18,904 bases of DNA, taken from Promethearchaeota archaeon (GTDB lineage: Archaea > Asgardarchaeota > Lokiarchaeia > Sigyniarchaeales > SOKP01). The stretch is taken from the NCBI GenBank assembly GCA_016930515.1, contig JAFGGO010000094.1:1-18904 (forward strand). The letters run 5' to 3'. Positions 4,841 through 13,129 of the stretch are shown in pieces. The position numbers and the translations under genes are program-made. Position 1 is the first letter of the stretch, and the number at the start of each line of letters is the position of its first letter. Below the pieces are notes generated by a model. It saw only the letters and a program-made list of their open reading frames with translations, had not been told where the DNA came from and ran no database searches.

Positions 4841-5794
4841 CTATTCTTTCTGTTTTAATCGTTCTTTTTTCGCTTTCCTTCTATCTTCAATTTTTTCCTT
4901 TTGGTGTTGTATTCGCTCTTTCAACGAGATATGTTCGGCTTGTTCATCGTGTCTCCTGAGGTATAAGTTATCGTATTTTTCTCTTAAGGTATCATAATCT
5001 CCAACATGTTCTTTAATTACGCTTTCTAGGTTTTTTTCGAAAAACCTGTTTTTTTTAAACTTTTTTGCGGGAATTCCCACATAAATCCAATCTTTCTCGA
5101 GCACTTGACCTACTGTTGTAGCAGAAGCTGCTGCAAGAACGCAATTATCCTGAACCTCCGTACCGGGCATGATAATAGCGTGTGTTCCAATTCGAGAGTT
5201 ATCCTTGATTGTTGTCTTTCTTATAATTAAAAGATTGCCTACAATAACTGCTGACTGAATAATTGCTCCCTGTCCAACCACGACATTATTACCAAATTCT
5301 ATAAATTCGCAATCTACCCATCCTTCAAAAAGCGAGTTGGAAAACTTCGTTTTGACACCAAACATTTTAAAACAAAGATTGTCCAAAAAGGGAAACGGAA
5401 ATTTATGGGATAACCAGATAGGCCATCTTTTGATGATATTCCTTATGTTCCAATAACGATAATCCTTATCTGAGGGATCGCGAAGAAAAACTCCTTCTCG
5501 AGGTTTGTGGATTAAATTAACGAATCCTAAGAGTAATTTAGCAAACACAAGCGATACCAATACGGCTGTTAGATACATTATGAATAATACCAAGGGAAGT
5601 AATAAATAAAAATGAATGTCCCGCCACGCAAAAATAAATTGCCAATTGTACATTTCCTGCCAAAACACCCAAAATTCAAGCAAGATTGAAGCCATGCTAA
5701 CCCACATTAAGAACGCATAAAGTAATGCGTATTTTTTCTTGACCAATATGGTTGTTGTAAACGGTCCTGCTTGTATTGATGATGGTACGCTCAT
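4841..5794 (-). CDS. Membrane-anchored left-handed beta-helix (hexapeptide repeat) acyltransferase-like protein, type C' (paralog of 7706..8626)
   Basis: Two N-terminal TM helices, HKPREGVFLRDPSDKDYRYW, hexapeptide repeats (FGNNVVVGQGAII, IKDNSRIGTHAIIMPG), terminal YVGIPAK. Confidence 0.88.
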   Translation of the reverse strand: MSVPSSIQAGPFTTTILVKKKYALLYAFLMWVSMASILLEFWVFWQEMYNWQFIFAWRDIHFYLLLPLVLFIMYLTAVLVSLVFAKLLLGFVNLIHKPREGVFLRDPSDKDYRYWNIRNIIKRWPIWLSHKFPFPFLDNLCFKMFGVKTKFSNSLFEGWVDCEFIEFGNNVVVGQGAIIQSAVIVGNLLIIRKTTIKDNSRIGTHAIIMPGTEVQDNCVLAAASATTVGQVLEKDWIYVGIPAKKFKKNRFFEKNLESVIKEHVGDYDTLREKYDNLYLRRHDEQAEHISLKERIQHQKEKIEDRRKAKKERLKQKE

Positions 5795-5817
5795 TTTTTA
5801 ATCGTCTTTTTATTTAT

Positions 5818-6741
5818 TTATTCTTGGGTGATTAAGTCTTTCTTATCTTCGTCAATATTTACCTCGTGCTTTACTTCATAATAACTCTCGTTGTCGACAT
5901 CGCGCATTTTGATTATATCTCTTCTTGATTCTGCATACTTGTTTTCTTTTATCTTCTGAGGTGGTACTCCCATATAAATCCATCCCTCTTCAAATATTTG
6001 ATTGTAATTAGTAACTGATAGTGCAGCGATAACCGTGTCCTTTCCAACAATACTACCTGGAGCAATAGTGCAATGTCCGCCAAGAACAACATAATCGTCT
6101 AAAATAATTTTCTTGATTATCAAGTAATTACCAACGATCATTGAACCCATCAATGTCACGCCTTGTCCTACTAAAACATTTCTTCCCATCTTTACAAATT
6201 CTAAGTCGCACCACGCATCGTGTAAGTGGCTTGAAAAATCGAGATTTAACCCGAACCAGCGAAAACCGAGTATGTCGATAAGGGGCGTCGGAGAATTGTT
6301 CATGAACCATATAACCAGCTTTTTTATTTCAGTTCTTAAGCACCAAAATTCAAAATCCGAGTTTCCTTTTTCGGCGAGAAATATTCCTTCTTTTGGTTTA
6401 TGAATGAGGTTTATTAAAACAAGAAATAACTTACTTAAACATATACAGGATAAAATGAACAAGTAATACATTGCAAGGAGTATCAAGGGAAATAATGCGA
6501 TTTGGAGGATCCATAATAAGGGATTTTCGTTGACCGCAAACCAGATGTATTGATAAAAAACGACCCCTACAAAGAAACCGCTCAGCCATAATATGGGAAT
6601 ATAAATTATTAGGAATTTTACGCTCATCCTGCTAATTGCGCTACTCGTGGTAAAATCGAGTAAATAATCGTCCTTAGACTCTTCTATTTTAACCTGTTCT
6701 TCCATATTAACAGTTCTATCTTCTTCTTCAGATTCGATCAT
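5818..6741 (-). CDS. Membrane-anchored left-handed beta-helix acyltransferase-like protein, type B' (paralog of 8623..9558)
   Basis: Two TM helices, HKPKEGIFLAE, DAWCDLEF, hexapeptide repeats (MGRNVLVGQG, LDDYVVLGGHCTIAPG), YMGVPP. Confidence 0.88.
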   Translation of the reverse strand: MIESEEEDRTVNMEEQVKIEESKDDYLLDFTTSSAISRMSVKFLIIYIPILWLSGFFVGVVFYQYIWFAVNENPLLWILQIALFPLILLAMYYLFILSCICLSKLFLVLINLIHKPKEGIFLAEKGNSDFEFWCLRTEIKKLVIWFMNNSPTPLIDILGFRWFGLNLDFSSHLHDAWCDLEFVKMGRNVLVGQGVTLMGSMIVGNYLIIKKIILDDYVVLGGHCTIAPGSIVGKDTVIAALSVTNYNQIFEEGWIYMGVPPQKIKENKYAESRRDIIKMRDVDNESYYEVKHEVNIDEDKKDLITQE

Positions 6742-6742
6742 A

Positions 6743-7675
6743 TCAATCCGTTTCCTTTATTCCCTCATTTTTCATCAAATCCTTTTTTAAAGAAGCGAAC
6801 TTGTTTTTAAGTTCGTCATCTCTTTCCAAATCTTCCTTGGTTATTTGCAAGTATTCCATTGTTTTTCTCTTAAATATTCTACGTAAGGGAATTCCATAAT
6901 AGTAGTTATCACCCTTGACGGCGTTAAATTTTGATGCAGAGGCTAATGGTAATAAGTATGCGTTGTCGTTAATTTCGCATCCGGGGGAAATAGCATTTGA
7001 TGCCGCCATCGTAACATTATCGCCGATTTTAACTTTAAAATACGAAATATTTCCAAATGTTCCATCAACCATATGCGATGTCGTGATGCTATTTGGTCCG
7101 ATGTAGCTATTCTCTCCAATTTGTATAAATCTATCTCCGCATACTTGTTCTTCCATCGTTGATCCCTTACCAATTTTATTGGAACCAACAAAATTATACA
7201 TCCACCTGATCAACCATGGAAGTGGACCCTTGGAAAAGGCATTTTTTGGATATTTAATCATAAACGATCGAATGTGATAAAAATTCAATATCCTACTTGG
7301 AATATTACGAGGGATGACGCCATTTTTTGAAGGTTGTAGCTTTTCGCTTAAATTCCACCAGAATCGAACGATTAAAGCGACGAAAAAGAGGTGTGTTAAA
7401 TAACAAACAACTACAACTATTGGAAAAGCAATGAAAGTTATTAAGGATAATGGTTCGGTAAATAATGATATTATACTTTTCGTTTGTAATACATAAGGAT
7501 ATAGAAAAAATAATGCGTATAAAAAGAAAATAATGCTTGGAACGAAAAACGATCCTAGATATGTTGTAAAAAAGGTGAGTATATGCCAATAAGGTTGTTT
7601 CTTTATCTCTTCTTTTATTACTTCTTTAGTCCCGTTTGAGTTTTGATCGGTTTCTTCATAATTTTCTTCAAGCAA
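6743..7675 (-). CDS. Membrane-anchored left-handed beta-helix acyltransferase-like protein, type A' (paralog of 9555..10481); TTG start
   Basis: Two TM helices, GVIPRNI...YHIRSF, hexapeptide repeats (IGKGSTM, IGENSYIG, IGDNVTM), TSHMVDG, YYGIP; TTG at 7673-7675 with GGGGTA upstream. Confidence 0.87.
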   Translation of the reverse strand: MLEENYEETDQNSNGTKEVIKEEIKKQPYWHILTFFTTYLGSFFVPSIIFFLYALFFLYPYVLQTKSIISLFTEPLSLITFIAFPIVVVVCYLTHLFFVALIVRFWWNLSEKLQPSKNGVIPRNIPSRILNFYHIRSFMIKYPKNAFSKGPLPWLIRWMYNFVGSNKIGKGSTMEEQVCGDRFIQIGENSYIGPNSITTSHMVDGTFGNISYFKVKIGDNVTMAASNAISPGCEINDNAYLLPLASASKFNAVKGDNYYYGIPLRRIFKRKTMEYLQITKEDLERDDELKNKFASLKKDLMKNEGIKETD

Positions 7676-7705
7676 TAAATAAATACCCCATAAATATCCG
7701 TAATT

Positions 7706-8626
7706 TTAGGGTTCAAACCCTTTTATTAACCTTCTTTTTTCTTCTTCCTTCTTTTTTTTTAACAAGTGTTTTCGTTCCTTCCACGATAGGTCTTTGTCGT
7801 ACCATTTAGTGAATTTTTCTTCGTACTCATCTCGAAGTACTTCGATGTCTTCCAAGTTTACAATCTTCTCTTCTATATTATCTTCAAAAAATCTATTTTT
7901 TTTATATTTTACGGCTGGTGCGCCAAGATATATCCAACCCTCTTCTAGAACCTGTCCAACAGTAGTTACCGAGTTAACGGCGAGCATGCAATTCTTTTTA
8001 ATGTGCGTTCCAGGCATGACTACAGCATGGCCTCCAATCCTCACATTATCTTCTATAATTGTCTTCTTAACGATGAACAAGTTCCCAACTATCAAAGCCG
8101 ACTGAACGATACTCGCCTGACCTAAAATCACATTCTTTCCAAATTCGACTAATTCGCAATCGACCCATCCTTCAAAAAGGGAGTTCGACAAGCTTGTTTT
8201 TACTCCGAACATTTTAAAACATAGATTATCTAAAAATGGAAGGGGAAATCTATGAGATATCCACGCTGGCCACCATTTGATGGTATTTCTTAAACTCCAA
8301 AATCGATAATCCTTATTAGATGGATCTCGAAGAAAAACGCCTTCCCGAGGCTTATGAAACATTTTTACGAATATCAATAATAGTTTTGCAAAAATTAGTG
8401 AGATTAATATTGATGTGATGTAAATAAAAAAGATCATGGGAATGAGAAAAATATAGAAAAATATTGGCGGAAAAATTTGGTACGCAATTTTCCAATAGAA
8501 AAAAAACTCTATAATAGCTGATAACATTGAGATCCAGAACAGAAATAGGTAACATATAAGGTATCTTTTTTTTACCAACACTAATGAAGCAAATGGACCT
8601 GCTTTTAAACTCGCTGGAACGCTCAT
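7706..8626 (-). CDS. Membrane-anchored left-handed beta-helix acyltransferase-like protein, type C
   Basis: MSVPASLKAGPF N-terminus, HKPREGVFLRDPSNKDYRFW, SNSLFEGWVDCE, hexapeptide repeats, YLGAPA; ATGA overlap with upstream gene (8623-8626). Confidence 0.88.
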   Translation of the reverse strand: MSVPASLKAGPFASLVLVKKRYLICYLFLFWISMLSAIIEFFFYWKIAYQIFPPIFFYIFLIPMIFFIYITSILISLIFAKLLLIFVKMFHKPREGVFLRDPSNKDYRFWSLRNTIKWWPAWISHRFPLPFLDNLCFKMFGVKTSLSNSLFEGWVDCELVEFGKNVILGQASIVQSALIVGNLFIVKKTIIEDNVRIGGHAVVMPGTHIKKNCMLAVNSVTTVGQVLEEGWIYLGAPAVKYKKNRFFEDNIEEKIVNLEDIEVLRDEYEEKFTKWYDKDLSWKERKHLLKKKKEEEKRRLIKGFEP

Positions 8627-9558
8627 TCGAGTTTTCCTCCATTGTTAGTGGCTAATCCTTTTTTATCCTCATCAATATTTATTTCGTGATTCTTTTTATA
8701 TTTCCTAAGACCATCAACATCTACAATTTTTATAATCGGTTTTCTTGATTCGGCAAATTTATTTGGTTTGAGTTCGATAGCAGGAATGCCAAAATAGATC
8801 CACCCTTCTTTAAGTACTTGCATGAAATTAGTTGTAGATAATGCTCCAACTACGGAATCTGATCCAATAAAAGTTCCAGGGGAAATTGTAGCGTGTCCAC
8901 CGATAACCACATAATCGTCTAAAAAAACCTGCTTAATGATCAAATACTTTCCAACGATATTTGCACTAAATATAATCGATCCTTGTCCTACTAAACCTTT
9001 TCGTCCTATTTGAATGAACTCTGGGTCAACCCATGCGTCGTACAAGCTGCTAGAAAAATCCATTTTAATACCAAACCAACGAAACGCCCAAGCGTCTATG
9101 AACGGAATTGGAGAATTACGGGTAAGCCATAATCCTATTTTTTTTATAGCAATTCGCAAACTCCAATAGCAATAATCCTTATTTTGTCGTTCAGCAAGGA
9201 AAATACCTTCCTTTGGTAAATGAACGAGATTAATTATGATGAGAAATACCTTACAACAAATCAAAACGCCAAAAACAAAAACCACATAAATTATAAATGC
9301 TTCAAATGGAAATATTACAATTATTAATATAAATCCAAACAAATTTTCGCTAATGAATTTAAATGCGATCACGAGTGCTTCAAAATACATGTAAAATACA
9401 ATTATTGCCCCAAAACCCCCTATCCAAAAAATAAGTAAATAAACAAAAATAAATCTCGAATTTACCTGACCCAAGGCGCTACTCGTGGCAAAATCAAGCC
9501 GGAAATCCTTTTCGTCACGATTTTTATTGGCGTTCTGAAGATTTTTTTCGTTAATCAT
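8623..9558 (-). CDS. Membrane-anchored left-handed beta-helix acyltransferase-like protein, type B
   Basis: LDFATSSA, two TM helices, HLPKEGIFLAE, DAWVDPEF, hexapeptide repeats, YFGIPA; ATGA overlap with upstream gene (9555-9558). Confidence 0.88.
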   Translation of the reverse strand: MINEKNLQNANKNRDEKDFRLDFATSSALGQVNSRFIFVYLLIFWIGGFGAIIVFYMYFEALVIAFKFISENLFGFILIIVIFPFEAFIIYVVFVFGVLICCKVFLIIINLVHLPKEGIFLAERQNKDYCYWSLRIAIKKIGLWLTRNSPIPFIDAWAFRWFGIKMDFSSSLYDAWVDPEFIQIGRKGLVGQGSIIFSANIVGKYLIIKQVFLDDYVVIGGHATISPGTFIGSDSVVGALSTTNFMQVLKEGWIYFGIPAIELKPNKFAESRKPIIKIVDVDGLRKYKKNHEINIDEDKKGLATNNGGKLE

Positions 9559-10481
9559 CGTTCTTCTTGAGATATATTTTTATTATCTTCTTGTATATTT
9601 CTTGGTATTTCTTGATTTATTTTCATTGATGTTCCAAGTTTGATTTGTTCGGGAGATAGTGCTAAATACTTTTGAATCTTCTTTATCGTTAATTTTCTCA
9701 TGGGCACGCCAAAATAATAATTCTTTCCGAGTACATTGAAATGCTTACCCGCATGGGCTGCTGGTAACAAGACAGAATTATCTCCTATTACACCTCCAGG
9801 ACCTGTGGCGTTCCATCCGCCCATCGTAACATTCTCTCCAATTTTAATTTTAAAATTTGAAATGTTCCCAAATATTCCCTCAACAACATGAGATGTAAGC
9901 ACGGAATTTACTCCTATATAGACATTCTTTCCAGTTTCTAAATATTTATCTGCACATACTTGCTCCTCTATTGTAGTACCTTTCCCAAGAGAATTAGTTT
10001 TCACGAAATTATATAACCAAGTTGTTAACCACGGAAATAATCCTTTTGAAAACATGTATTTTGGATATTTTATAATAAAAGAGCGAAGGTGGTAATAATT
10101 TAAAGTCTTGCTATGAATGTTCCTTGGGATGATACCGTCTCTTGAAGGGGACCTCTTTTCGGTTATTGCCCATAAAACGCGCGTTATTAATGCAATTAGA
10201 AACAAGCGTAAAAGGTAACAAAATAAGAAAACTATTGGGGTAATTAAAAGAATTAAAAGAGAATCTAATTGTGAAATTATAGCTAGAAAATTCTCAGCGA
10301 GCAAGATTTTTGGATAGAATAGGAATATGAAAAATAAAATGAATAATACACCCGCAACTATTAGCGACCCTAAATAAACTATGAAAAAGGACAAGAGAAA
10401 CCAGTGAAAATGAAGCTTTACTTCGTGCTTTGGTACTTCTAAATTAGTATTTTCGCTCTCGATTCTCTTTTCTGTCAACAT
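9555..10481 (-). CDS. Membrane-anchored left-handed beta-helix acyltransferase-like protein, type A (first gene of the six-gene operon)
   Basis: Two TM helices, GIIPRNI...YHLRSF, EEQVCAD, TSHVVEG, hexapeptide repeats, YFGVP; GAGGT SD upstream of the ATG. Confidence 0.88.
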   Translation of the reverse strand: MLTEKRIESENTNLEVPKHEVKLHFHWFLLSFFIVYLGSLIVAGVLFILFFIFLFYPKILLAENFLAIISQLDSLLILLITPIVFLFCYLLRLFLIALITRVLWAITEKRSPSRDGIIPRNIHSKTLNYYHLRSFIIKYPKYMFSKGLFPWLTTWLYNFVKTNSLGKGTTIEEQVCADKYLETGKNVYIGVNSVLTSHVVEGIFGNISNFKIKIGENVTMGGWNATGPGGVIGDNSVLLPAAHAGKHFNVLGKNYYFGVPMRKLTIKKIQKYLALSPEQIKLGTSMKINQEIPRNIQEDNKNISQEER

Positions 10482-10861
10482 TTTACCTCTAAAAAAGGGG
10501 AGGGAATATTTTTCTGCTGTTAAATAGAAAAAAAATTTAAATTTTAAAAATAATGGGATTTAATCCAAAATTAGATTCCTATCCATTTTTTTACACACCT
10601 ATTAAATATTAAAAAATCTGTCGTAAAAAGGAAAGAAAAATTGTTAAATTAAAGATAAAAAGAACCCATTAAAGCTAATGATAAAAAAGAATTGATACGA
10701 TACTTCAAAATATTTAATTATCACATCAAAGAGATAGGTAGCTTCTATTAATAACATAATAAAAAAACCTAGGAACTTTTATATTTTTCTTTAATTTACA
10801 CTTTTTGAAAGTATTGGAAAAAGAAACACATTCTAATATCTCACACCCATAAAATATATGG

Positions 10862-13129
10862 ATGATACCCTTCCGACTAAAACTGGGGCTCGAAATGAAA
10901 GAAAAATCAATATCGTTTATCAAGGATTTATATCCAACCGTTTTCAATTCCAAGGGGGAAAAGAAGACATTTGATGAATACAACATTGCAATTATTCTCA
11001 ACAAGGAAACGGGTCTCGACATGAATGTGGCCGAAAACATTGCTGAAAATGTTGTAAGGTCAATTATAGGTCTAGGCGTGAAAGAAATCACGACTACATA
11101 CATTCGAGAGCTAGTTTGCGTTGAACTTACTCAGCGAGGAATGCACAAATATCGAAATCTATTTGCTCGAGCGATAAATCTGGAAGACATTCATTTCAAG
11201 CTAGACGAAGAATTTATTGATTCCTACAAGGGAAAACAACCAAATTGGGGCCCGTTGGGTTACATAACTTACAAGAGAACGTACGCAAGAATCGTCGAAA
11301 ACGAAAATCGAAAGGAAGAGTTTTGGGAGACCGTGCGAAGAGTCGTTGAGGGATGTTATTCCATTCAGAAAGAACATTGCACGAAATTAACCCTTCCGTG
11401 GTCGGATTCAAAAGCTCAACGATCTGCTCAAAAGATGTTTGAAAAGATCTGGAACTTTAAAATGAGTCCTCCTGGAAGGGGGATGTGGATGATGGGAACA
11501 GAATTCATCGCACGACACGGTTCCATGGCTTTAAACAATTGTGGCTTCGCATCAACGGCCGACATACATTTAAAACATTCTAAGGCTTTCGAATTCGTCA
11601 TGGACGCCTTGATGCTTGGAGTTGGCGTCGGTTTTGATGTGAAAGGAGCGGGAAAACTTACTATAAAAAAACCAGAAGGGGGTAAATTCGATTTCCAAAT
11701 CCCAGATAGTCGCGAAGGATGGGTCGAAGCATTGAAATTGGTTTTAGAGGCGTTTTTTCTTGGTAAACAATTACCTAAATTCGATTATTCCCTCATTCGT
11801 CCAAAAGGAGAACCAATTAGGGGATTTGGGGGGGTTGCGTCCGGTCCAGAACCCTTGAAAGAAATGCTTGAAGATGTTGAAAAAACATTAACAACTCGCA
11901 TAGGAGAATACATCACATCCCTGGACATAGTAGATATAATGAACTACATTGGAAAATGCGTGGTGGCGGGAAACGTTCGTCGATCGGCTGAAATCGCTTT
12001 GGGAGATCCCATCGATTTTGATTTCGTTACAGCAAAGCAAGACGAAGAAAAGCTTTATTCTCACCGATGGGCGAGCAATAACAGTATTTTTGCCCAGAAG
12101 GGATTGGATTATTCTTTCATTTCCGAACAAATCGCCGTTAATGGAGAACCGGGGATATTATGGTTAGAAAACGCTCGTGCCTACTCTCGAATGGGCGGAG
12201 CACCTGACTTCAAGGACAAGAAAGTTGCTGGAGTAAATCCATGCGGAGAACAATCGTTGGAAAGCTTTGAACTTTGCTGCTTGGCGGAAACTTTTCCCTC
12301 TCATCACGAATCGTTTGAAGAATTTAGAGAAACTCTGAAATTTGCGTATTTATACGCAAAATCGGTTACTCTCGTGAACACCCATTGGAAAGAGACAAAC
12401 GCCGTGATGCTTAAAAACAGGAGAATGGGCATCTCTCAAACCGGAATTATTGAGGCGTTTGTTAAACACGGAAGAGCGACCGTGTTAGATTGGTGCGATA
12501 AAGGTTACCAATATCTTCAAAATGTAGACGAGCAATATTCTGATTGGCTTTGCATTCCGAAATCTATTAAAAAAACCACGGTCAAACCGAGCGGAACTGT
12601 TAGTCTTTTACCAGGTGTCACACCAGGGATACATTATCCTCATTCGGAATATTATATCAGGAGAATCCGCATTTCAAAAAATTCCGACTTGATCGACATT
12701 GTTAAGGAAGCAGGATATCACGTGGAAGACGACCTCTATTCGAAAAATTCGTTCGTAGTAGAATTTCCCATACACGAACAATATTTTGATAGATCTAAAA
12801 ATGATGTGTCGATTTGGGAGCAAGCAGAGAACGCCGCAGCATATCAAAAATACTGGAGCGACAATCAAGTATCAATTACAATCACTTTCCAATCCCACGA
12901 GGCGAACCAAATCAAGCATGTGCTTGAATGCTACGAAGACAAACTAAAAAGCGTTAGTTTTCTTCCCATATCCGATCACGGATACAAGCAAGCCCCTTAT
13001 GAGGAAATATCGAAGGAAACATACGAAGAAATGATTCGTAATATTAAACCCTTGAATCTTACAGACACTAAAGATCGTGTTCTTGGAGAAAAATATTGCG
13101 ATAGCGATAAGTGCGAAATTCGATTCTAA
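10862..13129 (+). CDS. nrdJ: Class II (adenosylcobalamin-dependent) ribonucleotide reductase, monomeric RTPR-type core with N-terminal ATP cone; true start may be the ATG at 10895
   Basis: YKRTYAR, PPGRGMW, LNNC, GNVRRSA, catalytic NPCGEQ, TTVKPSGT and a C-terminal redox pair CDSDKC; first ~100 aa resemble an ATP cone (FD..I...L.KETGL...AE.IA..V....TT.YIRELV..EL). Confidence 0.93.
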   Translation: MIPFRLKLGLEMKEKSISFIKDLYPTVFNSKGEKKTFDEYNIAIILNKETGLDMNVAENIAENVVRSIIGLGVKEITTTYIRELVCVELTQRGMHKYRNLFARAINLEDIHFKLDEEFIDSYKGKQPNWGPLGYITYKRTYARIVENENRKEEFWETVRRVVEGCYSIQKEHCTKLTLPWSDSKAQRSAQKMFEKIWNFKMSPPGRGMWMMGTEFIARHGSMALNNCGFASTADIHLKHSKAFEFVMDALMLGVGVGFDVKGAGKLTIKKPEGGKFDFQIPDSREGWVEALKLVLEAFFLGKQLPKFDYSLIRPKGEPIRGFGGVASGPEPLKEMLEDVEKTLTTRIGEYITSLDIVDIMNYIGKCVVAGNVRRSAEIALGDPIDFDFVTAKQDEEKLYSHRWASNNSIFAQKGLDYSFISEQIAVNGEPGILWLENARAYSRMGGAPDFKDKKVAGVNPCGEQSLESFELCCLAETFPSHHESFEEFRETLKFAYLYAKSVTLVNTHWKETNAVMLKNRRMGISQTGIIEAFVKHGRATVLDWCDKGYQYLQNVDEQYSDWLCIPKSIKKTTVKPSGTVSLLPGVTPGIHYPHSEYYIRRIRISKNSDLIDIVKEAGYHVEDDLYSKNSFVVEFPIHEQYFDRSKNDVSIWEQAENAAAYQKYWSDNQVSITITFQSHEANQIKHVLECYEDKLKSVSFLPISDHGYKQAPYEEISKETYEEMIRNIKPLNLTDTKDRVLGEKYCDSDKCEIRF

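Follow-up and report, generated by a model that had tools for sequence, protein, structure and literature searches.

Three membrane-anchored left-handed beta-helix paralogs, each encoded twice, form a candidate heterotrimeric acyltransferase in Lokiarchaeia

Hexapeptide-repeat acyltransferases with a left-handed beta-helix (LbH) generally use thioesters of coenzyme A (CoA) or acyl carrier protein (ACP), and the classical members of this superfamily are homotrimers; in LacA of Escherichia coli, His115 is the general base. In the Pls/PosA proteins, which include the epsilon-poly-L-lysine synthetase Pls and the delta-poly-L-ornithine synthetase PosA, N-terminal adenylation (A) and thiolation (T) domains share one chain with a terminal region of three modules, each composed of two transmembrane (TM) helices, a linker, and an LbH, and the donor of Pls is delivered on a pantetheine arm. 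In a published AlphaFold model of PosA, each terminal module begins with two TM helices and continues through a strand and two helices into an LbH, and the arrangement of the three LbHs, which sit over six membrane helices, is that of trimeric acyltransferases (PMC10522769). Here, we describe six genes that each encode one such module, located on an 18,904-nt contig (JAFGGO010000094.1, assembly GCA_016930515.1; hereafter, the window) of a Promethearchaeota archaeon of the class Lokiarchaeia. An earlier note on this contig, made from its sequence alone, had proposed that the genes form two sets of three, each set being an obligate heterotrimer equivalent to a Pls-type terminal module split into three genes.

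Three module types and the position of the putative catalytic histidine

The open reading frame (ORF) map of the window contains six co-oriented ORFs of 306–317 amino acids on the minus strand between positions 4841 and 10481. BLASTP comparisons among the six proteins separated them into three types, here designated X, Y, and Z, with identities of 48% for X1/X2, 49% for Y1/Y2, and 57–59% for Z1/Z2, whereas Y and Z shared 36–38% identity and X shared 21–26% identity with either Y or Z (E 1e-10 to 1e-17). The genes are transcribed in the order X1-Y1-Z1-X2-Y2-Z2, i.e., X-Y-Z twice. Four-nucleotide ATGA overlaps join X1 to Y1 and Y1 to Z1, and the remaining junctions are short gaps (Z1/X2, 30 nt; X2/Y2, 1 nt; and Y2/Z2, 23 nt). 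The features of the unit are as follows.

9555–10481, minus strand: X1, 308 amino acids; putative catalytic, histidine-bearing subunit with a TM hairpin at approximately residues 37–93 (hydropathy)
9888–9890, minus strand: codon of X1 His198, aligned with LacA His115
8623–9558, minus strand: Y1, 311 amino acids; without the histidine; start overlapping the X1 stop (ATGA)
7706–8626, minus strand: Z1, 306 amino acids; without the histidine; start overlapping the Y1 stop (ATGA)
6743–7675, minus strand: X2, 310 amino acids; TTG start; second histidine-bearing subunit
7073–7075, minus strand: codon of X2 His201
5818–6741, minus strand: Y2, 307 amino acids; second Y subunit, without the histidine
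4841–5794, minus strand: Z2, 317 amino acids; second Z subunit, without the histidine; C-terminal tail rich in K and E
10482–10861: AT-rich intergenic region that separates X1 from a class II ribonucleotide reductase gene of opposite orientation; presumed to hold the promoter of the six-gene unit

All six proteins showed two strongly hydrophobic segments within their first ~110 residues in hydropathy profiles. Hexapeptide-repeat models were the best Pfam match for five of the six, with weaker Hexapep matches in X1, and PF00132 scored above its 27-bit cut-off in three of the six and just under it in one more. The six-way alignment (A1) has invariant columns at G116, R133, P150, P228-G229, and Y256-G258-P260, which match the motifs listed in the earlier note. 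The predicted fold of X1 (mean predicted local distance difference test score [pLDDT] of 77) runs from two successive TM helices through a strand and two helices into LbH coils, and LbH strands were present both in this model and in that of a natural Z-X-Y fusion (P0121) described below. In a Foldseek search, the nearest solved folds were galactoside and maltose O-acetyltransferases with CoA, followed by serine acetyltransferases, with a probability of 1.00 to the LacA, MAT, and CysE families and a TM-score of ~0.6 on the target. By their repeats and their LbH fold, the six genes are members of the hexapeptide-repeat acyltransferase superfamily; the proposed three-subunit membrane form in the Asgard archaea is undescribed.

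The soluble LacA/maltose acetyltransferase/YvoF group shares the LbH fold and the loop after the catalytic histidine with the six proteins but has no TM hairpin or linker and forms homotrimers with three active sites; its sequence similarity to the six proteins is marginal (E 0.01), and NF058585 (YvoF) was the best NCBIfam match for the X type and for one Y copy. The earlier note described the locus itself correctly: the six tightly coupled paralogs of ~310 amino acids, the three types repeated twice, and the TM hairpin with its motifs and hexapeptide repeats were all recovered. Its statement that the window lacks adenylation and carrier domains also held, in that Pfam detected only Hexapep-type domains in the six proteins and no adenylation, carrier, glycosyltransferase, or lipid-synthesis genes among the annotated genes of the window. 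The earlier note knew of no characterized archaeal example, and the literature search returned no paper describing an Asgard X-Y-Z system.

The types differ at the putative catalytic position. In the alignment with E. coli LacA, X1 His198 is paired with the histidine of "TGH" (position 115 counted from the start of the alignment). The Ser197-His198 pair is unchanged across 15 X-type sequences, within a family motif of S-H-x-V-E/D. In a 67-row module alignment, Y and Z have Ser/Gly-Ala/Ser at the histidine column, with SAN in place of SH in Y1, so that within the triplicated Asgard form only X has a candidate catalytic histidine at the LacA His115 position. In contrast, the histidine is present in every single-module relative examined, namely, 12 bacterial rows (11 stand-alone genes and the LbH part of a GT21 glycosyltransferase fusion), two rows from Poseidoniales, and five from other Asgard families. 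In the Pls/PosA family, it occurs only in the third module, C3, in four of four proteins (Q-T-H-L-F/Y-E/H-D), and the H-x-x-E spacing is common to X, Pls C3 (THLFED), and the single-module relatives. Bacterial stand-alone three-module proteins have it in module 2 in three of three cases, and one of them (P0250) has it in modules 1 and 3 as well. The simplest reading is that this histidine is catalytic, that homotrimers of single modules would have three active sites, and that only one site is left in each triplicated form; the retention of the histidine only in X would thus leave a single active site per X-Y-Z complex.

Relationship to the Pls/PosA terminal region and other relatives

TIGR02353, the profile of the Pls-type terminal region, was the best NCBIfam match for both Z copies and for Y2. 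The match of Z2 (E 4e-11) placed residues 29–249 on profile positions 5–216 and included the TM hairpin, and that of Z1 (E 7e-9) covered residues 26–244. However, the six proteins scored 13.7–42 bits against the curated cut-off of 423.1 for this 695-position model, and weak matches to it occurred in 14 of 14 control genomes, so such matches alone are not specific. For a direct comparison, Pls-family proteins were taken from annotated plasmids (Streptomyces Pls, a second Streptomyces member, one from Azospirillum, and one from Acinetobacter baumannii that is annotated as an adenylation-domain protein and was taken to be PosA). A profile of the Asgard modules matched these proteins at E 1e-3 to 8e-17 (Z = 1e6), mostly over the LbH. 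With hhalign, A1 aligned with 12 Pls modules with a probability of 98.6% (E 5e-16) over 109 columns, which span the G-x-K/R motif and the LbH and leave the membrane part outside. The profile similarity to Pls that the earlier note had expected is therefore real and extends, in the hhalign comparison, over the LbH, but falls below the family cut-off.

A maximum-likelihood tree of 65 modules resolved three clades. The Pls modules formed one (SH-aLRT 98), the bacterial three-module proteins another (89), apart from the long-branched third module of P0250, and all of the Asgard modules the third (89). In this last clade, single-module genes from other families branched first, and the next split divided X from Y plus Z (96). 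Joining the His-bearing modules of the three lineages cost 223 log-likelihood units and was rejected by the approximately unbiased (AU) test (p 2e-121), values that, like the tree, are subject to composition bias and long branches. The separate clades and this rejection argue that the Asgard triad is not a fragmented Pls, and they indicate that it probably arose by an independent triplication of a single-module ancestor, one of three such triplications overall. A scheme in which X, Y, and Z are orthologous to C3, C1, and C2 by cyclic permutation was also rejected by the tree and the AU test.

The Asgard system and the Pls/PosA terminal region both have three modules of two TM helices, a linker, and an LbH per functional unit, both have the histidine in one of the three, and the layout of secondary structure resembles that of PosA (PMC10522769); the LbH parts are significantly similar at the profile level. 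The differences are that Pls/PosA is a single chain, whereas the Asgard modules are encoded one per gene in the window and as 2+1 and three-in-one fusions in its relatives; that the six Asgard proteins have no counterpart of the A and T domains of Pls/PosA; and that the histidine is in the last module in Pls but in the first gene in the window, corresponding to the middle module of the Z-X-Y fusion. Judged by the family cut-off, the missing A and T domains, the separate chains, and descent, the Asgard system is not a member of the Pls/PosA family, although by analogy it would work in a Pls/PosA-like manner.

The bacterial stand-alone proteins P0183 (Omnitrophota), P0250 (Elusimicrobia), P0222, and P0228 (the last with an added N-terminal short-chain dehydrogenase/reductase domain) lie between the two. 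The Asgard module profile detected these three-module proteins, which are 650–690 amino acids long, at E 1e-24 to 1e-40; they scored 157–184 bits on TIGR02353, and P0183 aligned over 93% of its length with annotated Pls/PosA genes. As in the Asgard proteins, there is no A or T domain, the histidine of the middle module is always kept, and the linkers carry similar motifs (P-x-x-G ... W-x-L ... LGA[KR]). They differ from the Asgard proteins in forming a single chain, in their own clade, and in aligning along the whole Pls terminal region. On these alignments, the bacterial three-module proteins bridge the Asgard modules and Pls/PosA. The recurrence of one His-bearing module in three independently triplicated lineages suggests that a single active site per trimer may be a requirement of the membrane architecture.

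In a conserved pair, an Atg22-like major facilitator superfamily gene (~600 amino acids; identified by Pfam in L103 only) overlaps the start of a single-module, His-bearing gene with two TM helices and an LbH (2TM-LbH). The pair occurs in two Poseidoniales metagenome-assembled genomes (MAGs) and in a syntenic MAG labeled "Methanobacteriota," at the following positions.

L103:8040–10585: Atg22-like/2TM-LbH pair
L116:5277–7797: Atg22-like/2TM-LbH pair
L120:7996–10528: Atg22-like/2TM-LbH pair

A proposed heterotrimer with a single active site, and its alternatives

Fusions between the types occur naturally. Z-X-Y fusions were found in P0121 (805 amino acids) and P0125 (797 amino acids), Z-X fusions in P0122, P0123, and on contig C23 of the window's own genome, and X-Y fusions of 585–650 amino acids in many copies, and the fusion orders are fixed. 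The phylum was surveyed with an even sample of 301 genomes, in which genomes with matches usually had seven or more. X-type matches were present in 68 of the 68 genomes of the window's family and in all seven of a sister family in the same order, and strong Z-type matches in 68 of 68 and six of seven, respectively, so that the conservation of the triplet raised by the earlier note was seen as the joint presence of X and Z in every genome of the family. The fold of P0121, predicted from an alignment of 10 sequences, reached a predicted template modeling score of 0.80 and a mean pLDDT of 76.8, with disorder only in the two inter-module linkers and at the N-terminus. Each of its modules, like X1 alone, contained two long helices, a short strand, two helices, and LbH coils. 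Because of the natural fusions, the co-occurrence of X and Z, the single His-bearing type, the translational coupling of the genes, and the predicted template modeling score of P0121, an X-Y-Z heterotrimer is predicted with good, though indirect, support. One half of the proposal in the earlier note, the obligate heterotrimer, thus gained from the fusions, the co-occurrence, and the single His-bearing type, whereas the other half, a Pls terminal module split in three, is contradicted by the tree and the AU test.

We favor, with moderate confidence, the reading in which each X-Y-Z set is one heterotrimeric, membrane-embedded LbH acyltransferase with a single active site. The three LbH prisms would be arranged with pseudo-threefold symmetry on the cytoplasmic side, with the three TM hairpins forming a six-helix bundle beneath them. 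The general-base histidine, found only in X (His198 in X1 and His201 in X2), would create one active site at the interface between X and a neighboring subunit, whereas Y and Z would have no catalytic role and would contribute the rest of the binding site and of the membrane bundle. The donor would be a pantetheine thioester, most likely acyl-CoA in this carrier-free organism. The cytoplasmic placement of the LbH is predicted from charge: K and R residues are located in the N-terminal flank and after the second TM helix, and the C-terminal tails are rich in K and E. If so, three paralogs would make up an obligate LbH acyltransferase heterotrimer that has one active site and is anchored by a six-helix bundle built from three hairpins; to our knowledge, no LbH enzyme of this kind has been described.

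The resemblance to Pls also raises the possibility of a carrier-free polymer synthase, in which an activated monomer (aminoacyl-CoA or similar) would be repeatedly condensed onto a free chain threaded through the six-helix bundle. This would account for the overall C1–C3 architecture with its single His-bearing module, for TIGR02353 as the best NCBIfam match of the Z type, for the hhalign probability of 98.6% against the Pls modules, and for the H-x-x-E spacing shared with Pls C3 and the single-module relatives. We nevertheless consider it unlikely, because the Asgard modules are not derived from Pls according to the tree and the AU test, the similarity to Pls is limited to the LbH part, the A domain, T domain, and phosphopantetheinyl transferase (PPTase) are absent, and no aminoacyl-CoA-forming enzyme is known in the organism. 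Furthermore, the GT1 neighbors and the GT21 fusion of bacterial single-module members, described below, fit the simple acylation of glycoconjugates.

If the six proteins were instead separate homotrimeric isozymes, three kinds in two copies each that are merely adjacent, they would follow the classical LbH acyltransferases and, presumably, the single-module relatives in bacteria and other archaea. However, Y and Z lack the histidine kept by every single-module member, the types are fused in one chain in fixed orders, X and Z occur together in all 68 family genomes, and the genes are translationally coupled, which makes this arrangement very improbable. Least probable of all is a non-enzymatic structural or transport module resembling the gamma-carbonic-anhydrase-like heterotrimer on mitochondrial complex I, since, although the best PDB sequence matches of Z2 are gamma-carbonic anhydrases (including CA1, CA2, and CAL of complex I) and two of the three subunits lack the catalytic histidine, the histidine and its preceding serine are invariant in the 15 X-type sequences, the histidine is retained in all lineages of the wider family, the three zinc-ligand histidines are not present as a set in the six-protein alignment, and the fold neighbors are CoA-dependent acetyltransferases. 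An identity as gamma-carbonic anhydrases was rejected on the absent zinc-ligand set, the invariant Ser-His pair of X, and these fold neighbors.

Several points weigh against the heterotrimeric acyltransferase. Only one of the five P0121 models was confident, and the mean pLDDT of the other four was 55–67. Y and Z may serve some purpose other than filling out the trimer. In the arrays of related genomes, X and Y occur in equal numbers and Z is rarer (5:5:3 in G228), so 1:1:1 stoichiometry does not hold everywhere and several X-Y pairs may use the same Z. No conserved neighbor that would indicate a substrate was found beside the cassettes of other Asgard families. Two metatranscriptomes of the source study contain no contig on this stretch, a result that is uninformative about expression.

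Donor, acceptor, and genomic context

A Pfam domain search of the 94%-complete genome detected no PP-binding domain and no ACPS-type PPTase domain. It has 12 AMP-binding (acyl-CoA-synthetase-like) genes, with open frames of 413–668 amino acids, none of which is on a contig carrying an LbH locus. A metagenomic protein, P0246 (1821 amino acids), combines a 2TM-LbH module (13–236), a PP-binding domain (325–390), and right-handed beta-helix/NosD repeats (745–1247); by its domain composition, it is a putative carrier-linked family member outside Pls. Together with Pls, this fusion shows that the wider family probably takes pantetheine thioesters. Because carrier and PPTase domains are absent, 12 AMP-binding genes are present, Pls and P0246 point to pantetheine, and LbH acyltransferases generally use thioesters, acyl-CoA is the likeliest donor. 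Of the two donors that the earlier note had allowed, acyl-CoA thus gains, and a carrier encoded elsewhere is opposed by the missing PP-binding domain; of the AMP-binding, ACP, and PPTase genes whose co-occurrence with the triplet it had suggested surveying, the window's own genome contains only the first.

The acceptor would most probably be a molecule that is associated with the membrane or is carried across it. An Oligoflexia MAG encodes a fusion of a GT21/GT2 glycosyltransferase domain with a 2TM-LbH module (L053:8744–10729, plus strand) and, nearby, a second single-module gene (L053:11346–12074, minus strand); GT1 genes stand beside three proteobacterial single-module genes. The GT21 fusion is a possible clue to glycolipid acylation by the wider family. 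A more specific proposal is that the X-Y-Z complexes are acyl-CoA-using acyltransferases that ester-acylate the membrane lipids or lipid-linked glycans of Lokiarchaeia, with the many sets leading to different products. We regard this as quite unlikely in so definite a form, the only leads being the best match of the X type to YvoF (an ether-lipid acetyltransferase), the ceramide-glucosyltransferase-like GT21 fusion, the GT1 neighbors, and DUF1295. If true, the archaeal relatives of eukaryotes would have a new class of enzymes that produce ester-acylated membrane components, which would be relevant to the archaeal-to-bacterial lipid transition. The three small archaeal subunits could also serve as a model of the Pls/PosA membrane region, for which they would be useful because no experimental structure of the Pls membrane domain was found in the literature and the PDB copy searched holds only the Pls A domain (7wew).

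In the window's family, the DUF1295 gene (by Pfam, of a family of steroid-reductase/ICMT-like membrane enzymes) precedes an X gene by ~125 nt; it was confirmed by Pfam in L031 (G228), and five other genomes have a similar-sized, co-oriented ORF there. The window itself has no DUF1295 gene between X1 and the ribonucleotide reductase gene. In related genomes (L031:12560–13399 of G228 and neighbors), heliorhodopsin, DUF1761, DUF6512, and UvdE genes are located between LbH cassettes. Within the family, synteny extends to a CxxCxxCC gene, a leucine-rich repeat (LRR) gene, the gene of the class II ribonucleotide reductase, DUF1295, and heliorhodopsin, but the family genomes are closely related, so this synteny is no evidence of a functional link. 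In other Asgard families, the neighbors of the cassettes (helicase, homocitrate synthase, GDPD, aminotransferase, CBS, and ADP-forming CoA ligase genes) are mutually unrelated.

Beyond the window, its own genome encodes a third set on C23, in which Z and X are fused and followed by Y, and an X-like gene on C85. A divergent, adjacent 2TM-LbH pair on C159 (24978–26592, plus strand), one with the histidine (IFSHLIY) and the other without it (VSFGVEA), may be a two-type version of the system. In related genomes, cassettes are arrayed next to the same ribonucleotide reductase gene, either as separate X, Y, and Z genes or as X-Y fusions followed by Z. Z is the most conserved type, the Z1 orthologs being 53–67% identical in 68 of 68 family genomes. 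The rest of the phylum has only weak, scattered single-module relatives in the 301-genome survey, and G241, an outlier, may have been misbinned. Z2 is closest to proteins from Promethearchaeota/Lokiarchaeota MAGs that are annotated as hypothetical or "DapH/DapD/GlmU-related" (58–78% identity); the few with NCBI labels of Thor-, Odin-, and Hermodarchaeota conflict with the survey and may come from mislabeled bins. A search of 1.8 billion representatives with the A1 profile returned 616 proteins at E 1e-10 or better, and the matches in the ESM Atlas were only unnamed or "acetyltransferase family" clusters, from the same phylum and Bdellovibrionota. Its presence in every examined genome of one family, in several copies each, suggests that the system probably makes something important for these lokiarchaeial relatives of eukaryotes.

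Upstream of the unit and divergent from it, the class II ribonucleotide reductase gene, with an ATP cone, occupies 10862–13129 (plus strand); the GC content of 10001–11000, which contains the intergenic region, is 0.29. A 125-amino-acid ORF at 10726–11103 (minus strand) overlaps the 5' end of the reductase gene and is probably not a gene. On the 3' side, the convergent genes are those of a 131-amino-acid CxxCxxCC protein (PF03692; 4442–4837, plus strand), which ends 3 nt from the end of Z2, and then an LRR protein. In six related genomes of the same family, CxxCxxCC homologs (44–48% identity) are found on the strand opposite the cassettes, either flanking them or in between. PADLOC returned no defense-system match in the window. 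The source run of the window is a 2021 sediment metagenome, and seven short contigs of a 2017 hot-springs metagenome from a different study match parts of 5216–8312 at 99% identity or higher.

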